From a candidate division WOR-3 bacterium (GTDB lineage Bacteria; Hydrothermota; 32-111), in assembly GCA_039804105.1 (NCBI GenBank), contig JBDRZU010000002.1, forward strand, positions 358,117-422,116: 64,000 nucleotides of DNA, given 5' to 3'. Position numbers: made by a program. This document shows, piece by piece, positions 39,001 to 45,000 of this stretch. Numbering within the stretch: position 1 is the stretch's first letter; each line of letters starts with the position of its first letter.

Positions 39001-42000
39001 TTCCCACCTATAGAATTTCCTCATGCGAACGTTTCAATGGCGATAATTCCTCTTGCAAAAGGTGATGAAGAAAAAATTTCTAACGGATTATCAAAATTAC
39101 ATGAAGAGGATCCATCATTCTACTTTAAGTTTGACCCTGAAATCAAACAAACACTCATTCATGGACTTGGAACGATCCATCTTGAAGTTATAATAAACAA
39201 ATTAAAAGAAAAATTTGGAGTGAATGTTAATCTTGAAAAACCAAGGATCAAATACAGAGAAACGATTAAAAAGACAGCATCAGCAGAAGGAAAACATAAA
39301 AAACAATCTGGTGGAAGAGGACAGTTCGGTGTGTGTAATGTTAAATTTGAACCACTCCCAAGAGGAACTGGATTCCAGTTTGTTGATGAAATTTTTGGTG
39401 GTGCGATACCAGCAAAATTTGTCCCATCTGTTGAAAAAGGGATAAAGGATGCACTTGAAAAAGGAGTTGTTGCAGGTTATCCAATAGTTGATGTAAAAGC
39501 GGTCCTTTTTGATGGAAAATACCACGATGTTGATTCATCCGATATAGCGTTCCAGATCGCTGGATCACTTGCAGTAAAAGGTGCAATACCACAAGCAGAT
39601 CCTGTAATCCTTGAACCCATAATGAATGTTGAAATAACTGTCCCAGAAGAGTATATGGGTGATATCATGGGCGATATCAATGCCAGAAGGGGAAAAATTC
39701 TTGGAACAGAGCATGCTGGAAGATACCAAAAGATAAAAGCGTTGATACCTGAGGCTGAAATGTATCAATACTCTTCACAACTCAGATCGATGACACAGGG
39801 TAGAGGTACATTTAAGATGGAATTTGAGACATACGAAGAAGTTCCAAGAGAAAAGGTTGCGAAGATTATTGAGGAAGCGAAAAGATTTCAAGAGGAACAA
39901 CAGGAAAAATGATCATTTCAGATCATATCTGTTTTCAATATACTGTTTAAAATCCTTTAATCCTTCAGAAAATTTGATGAAGAGAGCATCAAGAGTGCTC
40001 TCTTCATCCTGTAATATTCTGTTTTTACCAAAAAGTTCAATCTTTTTGGCAAGTTCCATAAGATCAAAAAGATTAAAATTCCCAACAACACTTTTGAATG
40101 CATGCGACTGTTTTGCAATCTGTTCAAAATTTCGTTCTTTTATTGCCTTTTCAAGCAAAGGAAATCTCTGATTATAATCGAATACAAACGCTTTCAAAAT
40201 ATCCTTAAAATCATCGGAGTCCTTTCCAAAAAGTTCTTCAAGTGATGAAAGATCGTAATCCATAAATTTATGGTTTAAACCTGTAAGGTATCGTTGTCTT
40301 CATTTCTGCTGGAACTCCATCGATTGTTCCAGGATTGAATACAGCTTTGTATGCTGCTTCAACTGCTGCATTATCACATGCAGGGTTTAAGGATTTTATA
40401 ACCTTTGCTGAAACAACTTTTCCATCCTTACCAACAACGACCTCAACAAAAACTGTTCCTTCAGCACCTATCTTTCTTGCTGCTTCAGGATATGCTGGTT
40501 GAATAATCTGTTTTGGTGTTGGTTGTATCACAACAGAAGGTTTCTTTTCCTCTTCTTTTTTTACAGTATCAACTGTCTGCTGCTGTTGCTGTTGTTGAAC
40601 CTGCTGTGAAAGTAGTTGTGATGCTGTTGGAGTTTTTACCTGTGTTTCCTCTTTAGGTTTTGCTTCCTCTTTTACCTCTTTTTTAACATTTTTATTGGTT
40701 TCAACAGTTTTTGTTTCCGTTGTCTTGATGGTTTCTTCAACTTTTGGTGCAGGGAAAAGCAAAGCAAAATCTATTTTCTTCTGATTCTGTTTCTCCACAT
40801 AGAATATGTCAAGATTTGAAATCGGCTCAATATTCGAAGAGTAAACATTATCAAACGATTTCAAAACATTGTTCGCTACGATAACCCTGTTTGGAACAAA
40901 AAGGAAAGCATAAGGTTGATCATCAACGATTATCTGTTGGAACTCTTTCCAGTAATTTCTTGCTTCTTCTTTATCCATAGTTGTCATCGCAAGGTTAACA
41001 ATAGAATCAACCTTTGGATTTCTGTAATCAACAAAGTTAAACCTACCTGTCTCTTTTACTGAAGACCAGAAAGGTAGTGGATTGAAATCTTCGTTTACCT
41101 GCCATGAGAGTATATAAAGATCATAATCCTTCGAAAAGAGTTTCAAAATCAAGGAATCAGATGGTAACTCTTTTAAGTTAACATTCAAACCAGCATTTTT
41201 CAATTGATTCGTTACCTCTCGTGCAACTTTTACGATCATCACATCATTCTTATCAGTTATGATATTTAAAACGAATGGTTTGTTGTTGTAGAGGTATCCT
41301 TTTATAGGATCCTTTTTCAAAACCTTTTCGACAAGTTTTATTCCATCTTTGTTGTAAGCAACAGGTTTAATATCTTCAGAATAAGCCCAGAATGATGGAG
41401 TTATTGGACCGTTAGCAGGTATACCATTTTTTATTGTATTCTTTATCAAAAGATCTCTGTTTATAAGTTGTGAAACACCTACTCTGAAATCCTTTGAGTC
41501 AAACGGTTTTCTTGAAAGGTTGAATCCTATATATGTATATATGTTTCCTTTCTTCTGAATTCCTGTTACATTTTTTAACTTTGCTATCTCCTCTATGTTA
41601 TCAGGTGTTATATCATAAACAAGATCAAGTTTTCCCTCTTTAAGATCGTTAATAATCGATTGTTGGTCAGTGTATATTCTATAAACGATTTTATCTATGA
41701 ACGGTTTATCTTCCAGAGAATAATTTTCATTTTTAACGAGTGATACATATTTTCCATTTTCCCATTTTTCGAGTTTGTATGGCCCATTTCCAACAGGTCT
41801 TGTATTAAAATCTGAATACTGTATCTGATTCTTTTCCTTTTCAAGCAAATGTTTTGGAAGTGGTTTTATATTTGAATCAAAAAGTGCCATCGGATAAACT
41901 TTGTTACAATAAAAAACGATTTTATCATCCGATAATACCTTAACAGAATCTATATTCTGTAATTTTGTAAATAGTGGAGAATTGTTCTTTGGATCCTTAA

Positions 42001-45000
42001 TAAGGTTGAATGTAAATTCAACATCATACGCTGTTACAGGTTGACCATCCTGCCAGACAACATCCTTTCTGAGATAGTATGTTATCTTTTTCAAATCTTC
42101 TGAATATTCCCAAGAAGTTGCAAGCATTGGAACTATGTTTCCATTGATATCATTTTTATGAAGTGGAAGAAAGAGCATGTCAACTATTTCGTTATGTGCT
42201 ATGAATGATGGATAAATCGGTGAAAGGTTTTCGGGTTCTCCTACTATTCCAACAACTATCTCTCCTCCTGGTTCTCCAACCTGTGGTAATCTTGATATCT
42301 TTTTTTCACATGAAACAATTAGAATTATCGCCAATAAGATAAGAGCTATTTTAGATATTTTAGAAAATTGCCTCATCAATCCTCCTTTTATTTATTTAAA
42401 GATTATTATTTAAAATTTTGAATTTGTCAACCTGTTTGATTTTCTCCTGAAAGAGTTTGATCTATTATCATTTCAAGTTTATCTCCCAAACTCTGTTCAG
42501 AATAAAATTTTAAAATATAATCTCTCCCTCTTTTTCCCATCTCCTCCCTTTCTGATTTAGGCATATTGAATACTTTCATAATTATTGAAACGATTTCATC
42601 AAGATTTTCAGGATCAGCATAGAATCCACATCCAGAGTCTTTAACAAACTCTGAATATTCTGGTTTCGCTGTAATAAGAATCGGTTTCCCTGCAAGCATA
42701 TAGTCAAAAAGTTTGTTCGGACTTAATCCGTATTTGTAAAGTTCAGTTTTGTTAACTGTGATCAAACAAAGATCAACATTAGCAAGAAAATTTAAAATGT
42801 TTCTTTTCGGTATAGTTTTATATATTCTAACATTTTTTATTTTTTCATTCTCAATTCTTTTTTCAATATCTTCTCTTAAAGGCCCCTCTCCGAGTATTAA
42901 GAAATCTATCGGTTTATTTTCAAGTTTTTTGGCAATATCTAATATAAGATAAGGGTTGTTCGCAACACCTATCGCCCCCGTGTAAGCAACTGTAAATTTA
43001 TCGATTTTATATTTTTCTTTGTAAAACTCTTTTGGTTTATCGGGTGTAAAATGGTTTGGATATGTGCAATTCGATATAAAGTGTATTTTCTTTTCATCTA
43101 TGCCTTTTGAAACTATATGGTTTTTAAACTTTTCAACACAGACAATTATACTTTTACTTTTTTGATAAATTATTTTTTCCAGAAGATATAAAAACCATGT
43201 GTAAGGATTATTTTTCATCTCTGGTTTAAGTTGTATTAACGATTCAGGCCAGAGATCAAGTATATCTGATATGAATGGTTTTTTCAACTTTATCGACAGA
43301 AAAAGTGCGGATAGTGCTGTGATCAATTGTGGAGAAACCCCAATTATTATATCTGGCTTTTCGAGTATCCTTCCAACTCTGTACATTTCAACAGAAAAAA
43401 TTATCTGGTTTAACAATCTCTGTAAATCATTTTTTTTGTATGTGAAAGTTTTGACCCAGACAAAATTCACTCCGTTAATATTTTCGATTTTATAATACTC
43501 ATCCTTAGCGAGTTTCATATGCTGGAGTTTATGAACATTAAAATCGGACGAGATTATATAAACCTTATAACCTCTTTTTACAAGCTCGATTCCAAAATCA
43601 AGATGTCTTGTTCCACCTGTCATCTCATAGGTATGCGCATTCTGATAACATATCCAGATAACTTTCCTTTTCGTAAAAACTCCTTTTGTTGAATTTTTTA
43701 TTATATAAAAAGGGAATTGAAAGTCAACAATTTTAAAATATCCAGATACCTGTTGAAAGAGAAAAACCTGAAAAGATTATTCCTTTGTTCAAAGAAGGAT
43801 CCGAAAAGAAAAAATATGTATAACCTGCCTGAATCGAAAAACTCAAAGATAAATTTTCTCCCAGATAAAAAAGAAAACCGTTTTCGTTTGCTAATGTGAA
43901 TGCTGTATATGACTCTGATGGGTTGTAAACAAGTTTTGTATACCCTGAAGTGAAGTATCCAGAATAAGATCCATCTTTACTTCTTGCTTTTTGATATGTT
44001 GGGATTGAAAAAGATAGACCTAACTGTCCAAACCTTGCTCCATAGGAATAGAGTTTTAAACCAAATATCGGAGTGAATTTTATACCATTTTTTTCAGCAA
44101 AAGCAAGTTCTGATGAGAATGGAAAAAGGTTAATGTGGAATGTATTACTCTGTTCTATCGGTTCAAAATAAACCTGTGGAGAAAATGATATATTGAAAAT
44201 GTTGTTGATCTTAGTTTTCTTTTTGACTTTTGAGTATGAAGGGGTAAAAAAAAGTACTCCTATGACCAAAATAAAAATAAATCTTTTCATTTATAAAAGA
44301 TAATACTATAAAAATTGATTTTTTCAATGAAAATGAATGTTATTTATCTTGACAAATACCAATAAAAGATTATTATAAAAAATTATGAATCGTTTAAAAA
44401 ATATAAAGTTTTTTATAATTTTGCAGATAATTTTCTTTTTAAACATAAACGGATCGAATATATTAACTGATTTTTTGTTTTCGAAATCATCGAATGTTGG
44501 ATTTTCAATTCTTAAAATAACTCCTGATGCATTTTCATCAGCACTTTCTGGAGGTGTAACTACTGGTTATAACTCTCCCTCTTCATTTCTTATAAATCCA
44601 GCATCTTCATCATTCTATAAAGAAAAAGGAATGGTAGTTTCAACGATTTACTCGTCTGGATTTTCAAATATCTATTCTGGAGCGATAAAATATCCTTTTT
44701 TCTTTGGAACATTTTCTTTTTCAGCAACTTCTTCAATATCGGATACAATTCAATTAAGAAATGAAGATCCTACTGAAAATCCTCTTGGATATTACAGATT
44801 CAACTCATATTCTTTTTCGCTTGGTTATTCAAACACTATAACGGAAGGGATTTTTGTTGGTTTATCATCCTCAGCGATAAATGAAAATTCTTTTCTGTTA
44901 AATAAAACTTCTTTTGTCGCAAGTGCTGGAGTTTTATTGGTCTTTGAACGATTTTTTAATTTTAAAGTTGGTGTATCCACTTTGAATGTTGGGTTTAAAA

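Follow-up and report, generated by a model that had tools for sequence, protein, structure and literature searches.

The window (the whole 64,000-nucleotide stretch of DNA that was analysed) carries on its minus strand a gene that joins a family-5 solute-binding protein to a TonB C-terminal domain in a single reading frame. The host lineage is an uncultivated hot-spring bacterial group. Translation begins at an ATG at 42376 behind an AGGAGG ribosome-binding site, and the promoter-like site further upstream is a consensus match only, such sites being no commoner in the region than in shuffles. The features of the locus are as follows.

42402..42430, minus strand: promoter-like site TTGACA-17-AATAAT, 11/12 consensus positions, inside the 50-nt gap upstream of the fusion gene
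42381..42386, minus strand: ribosome-binding site AGGAGG, 4 nt ahead of the ATG, read directly from the sequence
40268..42376, minus strand: the whole fusion gene, a 702-aa open reading frame including its stop (40268-40270), from translation and two Pfam domains
42308..42376, minus strand: predicted signal peptide with lipobox, residues 1-23, ending in IVSC (Cys23), from sequence and family alignment
40757..42274, minus strand: cluster-C / family-5 solute-binding fold, residues 35-540, from Pfam PF00496, AlphaFold2, Foldseek and phmmer
40532..40756, minus strand: flexible tether, residues 541-615 (75 aa), rich in K/E/T/Q with some P, from AlphaFold2 and family alignment
40574..40624, minus strand: conserved helix within the tether, residues 585-601, predicted with pLDDT of about 64-76
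40271..40531, minus strand: TonB C-terminal domain, residues 616-702, with a Q-P-x-Y-P motif (PF03544)

The protein thus runs from a lipoprotein signal through the binding fold and the tether to the TonB C-terminal domain, and the order of SBP_bac_5, linker and TonB_C given in the survey's finding was recovered by Pfam, NCBIfam and AlphaFold2 alike. SBP_bac_5 (PF00496) matches residues 80-439 with an E-value of 4.7e-78 and TonB_C (PF03544) matches residues 626-701 with an E-value of 7.7e-19 and a score of 68.4 against a cut-off of 24.6 bits; NCBIfam agrees on both domains. In the AlphaFold2 model, built from a family alignment of 30 rows, the fold spanning residues 35-540 is predicted confidently (pLDDT mostly 85-95) and is complete, with a modelled shape that by Foldseek resembles genuine transport proteins in their open state. 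Foldseek placed this fold beside 4oet (TM 0.86), 8efz (TM 0.87) and 1xoc (TM 0.79), and phmmer matched the binding domain to 4oet at 1e-47 and to 1xoc at 4.6e-42. The TonB C-terminal domain also folds confidently in the model, its Tyr629 and Pro630 are invariant in the 30 aligned sequences, and it shares 47% identity with the corresponding domain of the TonB encoded in the same genome. Between the two lies the tether, with pLDDT below 50 at residues 544-580 and 601-615, a length of 64-104 aa across the family and a mean pairwise identity of 0.26, lower than that of the binding domain (0.43) or of TonB_C (0.49). Its helix carries a T-A-x-Q/E-L/I-L-S/E motif around Leu589, which is invariant in the 30 sequences.

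The N-terminus was examined for whether it is a lipoprotein signal, as had been claimed, or a retained membrane anchor. A hydrophobic stretch of only about 13 residues is closed by a lipobox-type Cys in 28/28 full-length members of the family (two of the 30 rows are cut at the N-terminus), and a gene for signal peptidase II (LspA) is present in the genome; these observations support the lipoprotein signal, with cleavage predicted ahead of Cys23. From this residue the chain reaches the first strand of the binding fold after about 12 residues with no motor-side spacer, as judged from the model and the alignment. Given that this strand aligns with NikZ residues 6-12 and with the start of AppA, it is part of the binding fold and not a TonB motor box. 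These points bear on the earlier worry that the protein is an ordinary TonB with an insert, that is, a true energised paralogue in which an uncleaved helix would sit in ExbB-ExbD and the binding domain would be a spacer. The order of membrane end, spacer and TonB_C does resemble TonB; however, the Cys kept throughout the relatives, the lack of a disordered segment or motor-box strand past it, the want of exbB-exbD beside the fusion in any of 52 distinct loci, and the branching of the fused C-terminal domains apart from motor-linked TonBs make this reading extremely unlikely. The best explanation is that the fusion cannot transduce energy, because its predicted mature form would have only the lipid on Cys23 followed by the binding domain, with neither a membrane helix nor a motor-side segment. 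The absence of the His of the SHLS motif from the fusion proves nothing in this respect, since the genome's own TonB lacks that His too.

The tree that separates the two kinds of TonB domain comprises 31 C-terminal domains (30 loci that were fetched and the two copies in this genome; the matches numbered 69, in 15 other genomes). In it, the 13 fused domains lie on one side of a branch with a support of 92/94, recovered in 96% of bootstrap trees, which shows a single origin for the fused TonB domain. The fusion is single-copy and occurs in 108/271 genomes of the phylum, all-or-none by family, and both domains are found on 33 of its 34 best matches, at 31-90% identity, in keeping with the conservation that had been reported. 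TonB-dependent transporters are present in 270/271 genomes of the phylum. A chemoreceptor with an SBP5 domain occurs in 72 genomes, 68 of which also carry the fusion.

An inventory of the genome bore out the remaining claims about its import genes. TonB_C occurs in two places, the fusion gene and the canonical 205-aa TonB behind ExbB-ExbD-ExbD, a cluster that sits on the other contig; SBP_bac_5 likewise occurs in two, the fusion gene and a 1112-aa chemoreceptor. BPD_transp_1 occurs in four, a Pst pair and a UgpAE/MalFG-like pair, with no Opp/Dpp-type permease found among them, and oligo_HPY occurs nowhere in the genome, hence no Opp/Dpp-type ATPase was found. There is one CstA, no PTR2 or OPT was found in the genome, and Plug-domain (TonB-dependent) transporters number four. 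The genome is 85% complete by score, yet consists of only two contigs, and four congeneric genomes that are 95-100% complete are also without oligo_HPY. The fusion could conceivably serve an ABC importer in the ordinary way, with a permease that is unlinked or has escaped recognition, the TonB domain only helping to place the protein. A permease pair at 34735..36586, on the same strand and 4 kb away, stands without an adjacent binding protein or ATPase and could be taken for such a partner, as could the Opp/Nik-type ATPases that coexist with the fusion and nikR in genus g96. However, the pair belongs to the sugar (CUT1) type, with a matching SBP_bac_1/8 protein elsewhere in the genome; oligo_HPY is missing from 94/108 fusion-bearing genomes; in G247 the Opp-type ATPases lie 19 kb from the fusion; and BPD_transp_1, OppC_N or oligo_HPY falls within three genes of the fusion in 0/52 loci. 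Among the nearest unfused relatives, 4/6 loci examined are classical Opp/Dpp operons. An ordinary importer subunit is accordingly judged very unlikely.

Across the 52 loci the gene surroundings are inconsistent, which speaks against a passive adaptor: most fusions lie among envelope-sugar, pyrimidine or housekeeping genes with no consistent transporter partner. A Ton gene lies within three genes in 4/52 loci, namely a TonB-dependent transporter in L016 and L158 and, as the next gene upstream, a small tonB in L157 and L159, the latter two of one genus; this is close to chance if a genome of about 2000 genes is roughly estimated to hold about 10 of this kind. In 15-17/52 loci the fusion follows LPG_synthase_TM, UDP-glucose dehydrogenase, an epimerase and MscS on the same strand, and a GT4 glycosyltransferase precedes it in the window and in the closest relative, L013. 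These neighbours raise the possibility of an envelope protein with a borrowed scaffold, doing a non-transport job such as envelope glycolipid or peptide handling or chaperoning, in which the TonB/TolA-type domain would do no more than anchor it to peptidoglycan or an outer-membrane protein, in the manner of other binding-protein lipoproteins that have no transporter. The fold of LpqW is that of a family-5 binding protein. A precedent is offered by LpqW and other mycobacterial lipoproteins, which act in envelope biogenesis (PMC12802301). The absence of an importer from this genome and from most fusion genomes, and pocket residues that differ between subclades, would fit such a role. The sugar-gene surroundings, however, are one synteny block common to related families and do not recur independently, other lineages placing the fusion amid pyrimidine, tRNA-synthetase or peptidase genes, and the complete binding fold is modelled like that of open, true transport proteins; a borrowed scaffold is therefore considered unlikely.

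In genus g96 the surroundings differ: in 12/14 genomes, as read from coordinates, the fusion immediately precedes nikR, which occurs only once in the genome, with a small tonB upstream of it in two fetched loci, a transporter downstream in one, and LarC and LarB nearby in two. The remaining five genera of the family to which g96 belongs have no NikR, phmmer with three NikR queries detected none in the present genome, and the nikR linkage was not found at the other 49 loci.

The description of the protein as a peptide catcher was not specifically supported, the best solved relatives of its binding domain being the nickel-binding NikZ, which is the closest, and AppA. The nickel ligands of NikZ are not kept either. 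The double-His prong (CjNikZ His480/481) is absent, there being no His pair in the whole protein or in the three g96 relatives checked, and no His in the stretch after the end of the NikZ alignment, where the CjNikZ prong lies. The position of NikZ Arg344 is occupied by Ile in this protein and by Arg in part of the family (distant members), and His61, which aligns to NikZ His26, is present only in the subclade of this fusion. In OppA and DppA the Asp of a G-W-x-x-D motif holds the peptide N-terminus; this Asp is Asn in the fusion protein, and the chemoreceptor keeps G-W-A-G-D. A small metal chelate of the nickel type and a short peptide are both candidate ligands.

Taken together, the reading preferred here, with a rough probability of 0.45, is that of a passive adaptor, a ligand-binding lipoprotein docked on outer-membrane TonB-box proteins. 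Cys23 would be lipidated after cleavage of the signal, with the binding domain following at once, and the TonB domain, on its leash of 64-104 residues, would dock by beta-strand addition on outer-membrane proteins that bear a TonB box, the probable partners being the four TonB-dependent transporters of this genome. A ligand-binding module would thereby be tied to the outer-membrane import machinery, and the binding domain would work on its own in the periplasm as a receptor, capturing or sensing transporter cargo, and not as an ABC importer subunit. Docking on TonB boxes is suggested by the domain family, and any assignment of the lipid anchor to one membrane, or of a consequence to ligand binding, is similarly presumptive. 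Three further observations stand against the adaptor: without an importer to pass it on to, the receptor would have no evident destination for its ligand; the mapped pocket residues are not conserved across the family, varying between subclades of the 30-sequence alignment; and the binding domain adjoins the lipid anchor while the leash puts the TonB domain at the opposite end, so that an anchor in the inner membrane would leave the binding domain far from the transporters.

A TonB domain that is not energised would compete with the real TonB, and for this a gate fits better than a catcher. It is possible that such a domain blocks TonB-dependent uptake under control of the ligand, either by occupying TonB boxes or by pairing with the genuine TonB, the occupancy of the binding domain deciding whether the TonB domain is free and the tether helix being a possible latch. 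With no motor end, any binding to a TonB box would be competitive by nature, and transport in E. coli is inhibited when C-terminal fragments of TonB are present in the periplasm. Sensing also fits a family without an importer better than delivery does, the other family-5 domain of the lineage is itself a sensor, a conserved helix within an otherwise free-running tether calls for explanation, and in genus g96 the fusion has a small tonB on one side and the gene of the nickel repressor, nikR, on the other. The gate is nonetheless doubtful: nothing found points to a coupling of the two domains across a disordered tether, and constitutive inhibition would be costly, yet the fusion is kept in single copy over a wide span of the phylum. 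If true, it would mean periplasmic feedback control over outer-membrane import. An equally speculative form of it is a valve, in which loading with a nickel chelate or peptide would release the latch helix and free the motor-less TonB domain, TonB boxes would be occupied and the gate would be shut from the periplasmic side; this would amount to feedback on outer-membrane transport by a single polypeptide, without transcription or an ABC importer.

The survey's finding had taken the architecture to be undescribed, and the literature search found no paper on an SBP5-TonB_C protein; several known systems share parts of the fusion. With the family-5 binders CjNikZ (4oet), CcNikZ-II (8efz), AppA of B. 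subtilis (1xoc), NikA, OppA and DppA it has in common the complete fold (TM 0.79-0.87), the family signature and a lipoprotein or secreted N-terminus, and it differs in that neither the genome nor the neighbourhood of the gene contains a cognate permease or ATPase, and in its added C-terminal TonB domain. The MCP-SBP5 chemoreceptor of the same genome likewise joins a family-5 domain that lacks an ABC partner to a second functional module, but its binding domain is only 24% identical to that of the fusion, and its signalling output is clear; the fusion contains no signalling domain. In H. pylori, FrpB4 mediates TonB-dependent passage of nickel across the outer membrane under NikR control, as described in PMC3856676; the likeness is confined to genus g96, where the fusion adjoins nikR, while the fusion of the window is without the conserved known nickel-binding residues and its genome is without a detectable NikR.

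Compared with canonical TonB, of the E. coli type and of the 205-aa type in this genome, the fusion shares PF03544 with its Tyr-Pro motif and a flexible, charged, Pro-containing spacer (domain II) long enough to cross the periplasm. It has no transmembrane helix after predicted processing, no exbB-exbD linkage and no motor-box segment, the motor box of TonB being a strand in the disordered segment just past the helix (PMC12204202); a 500-residue binding domain occupies the place of the motor-coupling end. Finally, a precedent for the adaptor reading is the 'PBP-assisted' model, cited in the introduction of PMC3940036, in which FhuD and BtuF, two periplasmic binding proteins, are bound by TonB. 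There TonB is energised, delivery is to an ABC importer and the binders are of the siderophore/B12 type, whereas the fusion has no motor end, usually no importer, and a family-5 binder. Both arrangements would hold a binding protein and the periplasmic part of TonB near the transporter, and in the fusion the two are covalently joined.

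The fusion gene g01624 was recovered as the survey's finding had described it, with both domains, the tether between them and the minus-strand frame in place. Its features are as follows.

40268..42376, minus strand: open frame of the fusion, start ATG at 42376, 702-aa product
4 nt before the ATG at 42376, minus strand: ribosome-binding site AGGAGG, read from the sequence
50-nt gap between the upstream glycosyltransferase gene and the fusion, minus strand: match to the consensus TTGACA-17-AATAAT
Residues 80-439 of the fusion: SBP_bac_5, E 4.7e-78
Residues 626-701 of the fusion: TonB_C, E 7.7e-19

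Prediction of the structure with AlphaFold2 from a 30-sequence family alignment gave a confident binding-protein fold for residues 35-540, one helix at 585-601 and a confident C-terminal domain, with predicted disorder at 21-31, 544-580 and 601-615. The best Foldseek matches are open or unliganded forms: apo CcNikZ-II (8efz, TM 0.87), apo CjNikZ (4oet, 0.86) and AppA (1xoc, 0.79). The nearest NCBIfam models for the binding domain are Opp4A, NikA and OppA, each far under its cut-off, and the fusion scores over the cut-off of the TonB C-terminal model. Conservation of the joined architecture, also proposed at the outset, is evident in 33 of the 34 best matches from a collection clustered at 90%, all of them two-domain proteins with identities of 31-90% and lengths of 640-715 aa; the few named matches are WOR-3, TA06 or Stahlbacteria bins. 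In an exhaustive search of representatives at 50% identity, the top 14 matches (658-716 aa) cover the fusion over its full length, and both domains are present in 8/8 fused-length representatives scanned (six of those 14 together with P0135 and P0137). The fusion is a real and strongly conserved feature.

Across the phylum the fusion occurs in 108/271 genomes, and in 73/180 high-quality genomes, nearly always as one full-length match per genome. By family its presence is all-or-none (12/12, 6/6, 16/16 and 30/31 as against 0/12, 0/11 and 0/10, for example). The tether, which every family member has at a length of 64-104 aa, is the least conserved part, with a mean pairwise identity of 0.26; the binding domain has 0.43 and the TonB domain 0.49. 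Each of 15 other carriers has 2-8 TonB_C genes, exactly one being the long form. A tree was built of 31 C-terminal domains taken from 30 fetched loci and the genome's own two copies; it covers part of the 69 TonB_C matches in these 15 genomes. A branch supported at 92/94, and recovered in 96% of bootstrap trees, separates the 13 fused domains from the 18 others. These sequence relationships fit one ancient fusion, presumably followed by vertical descent. A phylogenetic profile of the fusion against TonB-dependent transporters does not discriminate, since their Plug domain is present in 270/271 genomes.

The N-terminus is a predicted lipoprotein signal and not a TonB anchor. A Cys closes a short hydrophobic stretch in 28/28 full-length sequences of the family alignment (two further rows are cut at the N-terminus) and the genome encodes signal peptidase II, in support of the signal originally proposed. 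The accompanying worry, that the N-terminal helix might be a TonB-type transmembrane anchor, is unlikely to hold, for two reasons: first, this Cys is conserved; second, the first strand of the binding fold begins about 12 residues past Cys23, aligning to NikZ residues 6-12 and the start of AppA. A recent survey of TonB and TolA proteins describes a disordered segment with a 'motor box' strand past the membrane helix (PMC12204202), for which the fusion, in contrast, leaves no room. With the conserved lipobox-type Cys and no space for a motor-box segment, it is highly improbable that the fusion is a true, energised TonB. The missing His of the SHLS motif is uninformative alone, because the genome's resident TonB likewise lacks it. 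LolA Pfam has no match in the genome and a Bacteroides control is equally silent, so this result has no bearing on sorting.

As the survey's finding stated, TonB_C lies at two places in this genome (1.81 Mb, two contigs, CheckM 85%), namely the fusion and a 205-aa TonB behind ExbB-ExbD-ExbD, and SBP_bac_5 also at two, the fusion and a 1112-aa protein in a che operon whose MCP signalling domain is N-terminal. The ABC permease domain BPD_transp_1 occurs at four places, two of them PstC and PstA within a complete pst operon and the others a UgpAE/MalFG-like pair; oligo_HPY, the domain that marks Opp/Dpp/Nik ATPases, has 0 matches in the genome, and there are four Plug-domain transporters. The claimed lack of an Opp/Dpp permease is borne out. 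Incompleteness is an unlikely cause of the missing oligo_HPY, since this domain is also lacking from four genomes of the genus that are 95-100% complete. Among genes for inner-membrane peptide uptake the genome has one CstA, and no PTR2 or OPT was found. Across the phylum oligo_HPY is present in 25/271 genomes, and in 14/108 of those with the fusion; given that it is mostly missing whether or not the fusion is present, the fusion is not a replacement for Opp/Dpp.

The surroundings of the fusion were compared over 52 distinct loci from 56 collected, with neighbour families scanned through representatives (73/119 in one round, and most of the common ones in others; about 20 small ORFs of <200 aa were left out). 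Within three genes of the fusion these loci hold no BPD_transp_1, OppC_N or oligo_HPY gene, and the ABC genes nearby are of exporter type only; the same approach, applied as a control to the closest relatives without the fusion (28-31% identity), places them in classical Opp/Dpp operons at 4/6 loci. Service to a conventional ABC importer is very unlikely on two counts, these neighbourhoods and the small share of carriers with oligo_HPY. The UgpAE/MalFG-like permease pair of the window (34735-36586, minus strand) has no binding protein or ATPase alongside and is directly followed by a gene for an M23 peptidoglycan endopeptidase. This pair, 4 kb off, was rejected as a partner: it is of sugar type, the sole SBP_bac_1/8 protein of the genome, on the other contig, is a candidate binding protein for it, and it does not stand beside the fusion in other lineages.

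The ligand, initially called a peptide, has to be left wider. The closest solved protein by sequence is the nickel binder CjNikZ (1e-47), then AppA. The nickel site of NikZ consists of His26, Arg344 and a double-His prong, His480/481 (bioRxiv 10.1101/2022.10.03.510666). In the alignment to NikZ, His26 corresponds to His61 of the fusion and Arg344 to Ile; there is no double His anywhere in the fusion, and no His in the stretch past the end of the alignment, where the CjNikZ prong lies. The pattern flips over the family, distant members having the Arg and not the His, and the three proteins checked from g96, one genus with the fusion, have no His pair. In OppA and DppA, the Asp of a G-W-x-x-D motif holds the peptide amino terminus. 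At this position the fusion has Asn and the family is variable, whereas the genome's own chemoreceptor keeps G-W-A-G-D. The ligand cannot be called a peptide because CjNikZ is closest, the nickel residues are inconsistent and this Asp is not kept; a nickel chelate and a short peptide are both candidate ligands, and different subclades may bind different ones.

The clearest neighbourhood signal is nikR in genus g96. In 12 of the 14 g96 genomes having both genes, the coordinates show the genome's only nikR immediately after the fusion and in the same orientation; in the remaining two the genes are on separate contigs. LarC and LarB are near the fusion in two g96 loci, where the order is small tonB, fusion and nikR with LarC and LarB convergent (L157:5366-10957, L159:5188-11118), and in one genome a CarboxypepD_reg transporter and an 825-aa protein come after nikR (L158:1572-7979). 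NikR is absent from the other five genera of g96's family, all with the fusion. The window's genome has no phmmer match to NikR, LarC or LarB and a sub-threshold match only to the [NiFe]-hydrogenase Pfam family.

Overall, the contexts of the fusion are a few synteny blocks. LPG_synthase_TM, UDP-glucose dehydrogenase, an epimerase and MscS precede it in 15-17 loci, and PRTase, aspartate carbamoyltransferase and dihydroorotase follow it in 7-12; six loci have it after two M42 peptidases and one M23 peptidase and ahead of RibD and AspRS, and the window's type (4-6 loci) has GT4 before, Hpt after and a convergent EF-G. The sugar-gene neighbourhood would suit a borrowed binding-protein scaffold that serves in the envelope or as an anchor, and mycobacterial binding-protein lipoproteins without a transporter (PMC12802301) point the same way, but such a role is considered unlikely. 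In 4/52 loci a Ton gene is no more than three genes from the fusion: L016 has a divergent 654-aa transporter, L157 and L159 have the small tonB immediately before the fusion in the same orientation, and L158 has the CarboxypepD_reg-type transporter two genes downstream, a homologue of the window genome's own 1050-aa transporter (E 1.7e-56). By a rough estimate this is near chance, and L157 and L159 are of one genus.

A 116-aa single-domain Hpt protein (39913-40263, minus strand; PF01627, E 1.4e-6) starts 4 nt past the fusion stop, its gene running up to a convergent EF-G paralogue with a terminator-like hairpin inside it at 39976-40008; it was rejected as a partner, as it is beside the fusion in 4/52 loci only, all close relatives. 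The polytopic membrane protein 'fam13' (4797-5930, plus strand), which matches no Pfam family, is about 380-400 aa long and has a tail rich in K and E; it adjoins the fusion in 8/52 loci in three arrangements. It was rejected as the missing permease, since it is single-copy in 242/271 genomes, families without the fusion included, and lies 34 kb away in the window. At 44385-46024 (plus strand) are a PorV/PorQ-family outer-membrane protein (type IX secretion) and then a DUF4388 (PATAN) protein.

The 1112-aa chemoreceptor (contig 1 of the window's genome, L101:6972-10307), with its C-terminal family-5 domain and a cheW-cheY-cheA operon around it, is found at E<=1e-100 in 72/271 genomes, 68 of which also have the fusion; with one exception, families without the fusion are also without it. 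Kinship may explain this overlap, and at 24% identity the chemoreceptor domain is not a recent paralogue of the fusion domain. Another binding protein beside a sensor, here also next to a transporter, is found at L096:8478-12976 (contig 1), where a 655-aa TonB-dependent transporter precedes, on the same strand, a 216-aa ABC_sub_bind-type protein and a 550-aa HAMP-MCP chemoreceptor. A 1050-aa CarboxypepD_reg-Plug-barrel transporter and a 1031-aa protein of no known family (contig 1, L097:2953-9213) are conserved as a pair in G247, a g96 genome, there after the fusion and nikR (L158). The tether motif Q-L-L-S-Q-Q-V (40574-40624, minus strand) resembles E-L-L-S-Q-E-V-N-V-A-T, the stretch immediately preceding the putative TonB box in the 655-aa transporter (L096:8478-8650). 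Despite this likeness (L-L-S-Q-x-V) it was rejected as a TonB-box mimic, as other family members retain only L-L-E/S and have no alternating strand pattern.

In summary, the fusion is a motor-less, lipid-anchored binding protein whose leash ends in a well-conserved TonB domain, long kept in a lineage with near-universal TonB-dependent transporters and mostly without Opp/Dpp-type ABC importers. It is a variant assembled from known parts, whose mechanism we infer. The most economical reading, with a probability of roughly 0.45, is that the fusion acts as a passive adaptor, whose TonB domain would dock on TonB boxes and in this way link a periplasmic receptor that stands alone to the import machinery of the outer membrane. 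Its weak points are that TonB-box binding is predicted, that the ligand has no known acceptor, that the binding domain lies at the anchor end of the molecule and that a TonB domain lacking the motor end has to compete with the real TonB. This same competition is what would let the fusion gate TonB-dependent import, a reading in which the conserved helix of the tether, around the invariant Leu589, would also have a function, though we think a gate improbable.

The adaptor reading and its alternatives bear on a wider question. A binding protein joined to a TonB docking domain and kept single-copy over about 40% of a phylum suggests that the two activities belong at the same place; with no motor end, and no family-5 (Opp/Dpp-type) ABC importer found in most carriers, it could reveal a non-textbook job of binding proteins and TonB domains in capture, sensing or gating. 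Since the fusion is a soluble two-domain protein that could be produced in E. coli, the question is testable although the organisms are uncultivated. As had been supposed, no description of the SBP-TonB_C architecture was found in the full-text literature searched (subscription journals mostly outside); the words 'solute' and 'substrate-binding' do not occur in the 2025 survey of TonB/TolA evolution (PMC12204202), and in public records the fusion has no name other than 'TonB family protein' or 'peptide/nickel transport system substrate-binding protein'. This analysis adds counts over the whole phylum, a control for the absence of importers, a tree of C-terminal domains, the survey of 52 loci, the link to nikR in g96 and doubt that the ligand is a peptide. 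Handover from transporter to periplasmic binding protein, and whether TonB recruits such binding proteins, have been debated since the FhuD and BtuF studies, with no in vivo proof (PMC3940036). The 'PBP-assisted' model set out there has TonB contacting FhuD and BtuF, and the fusion would be a covalent version of these TonB-FhuD and TonB-BtuF contacts.
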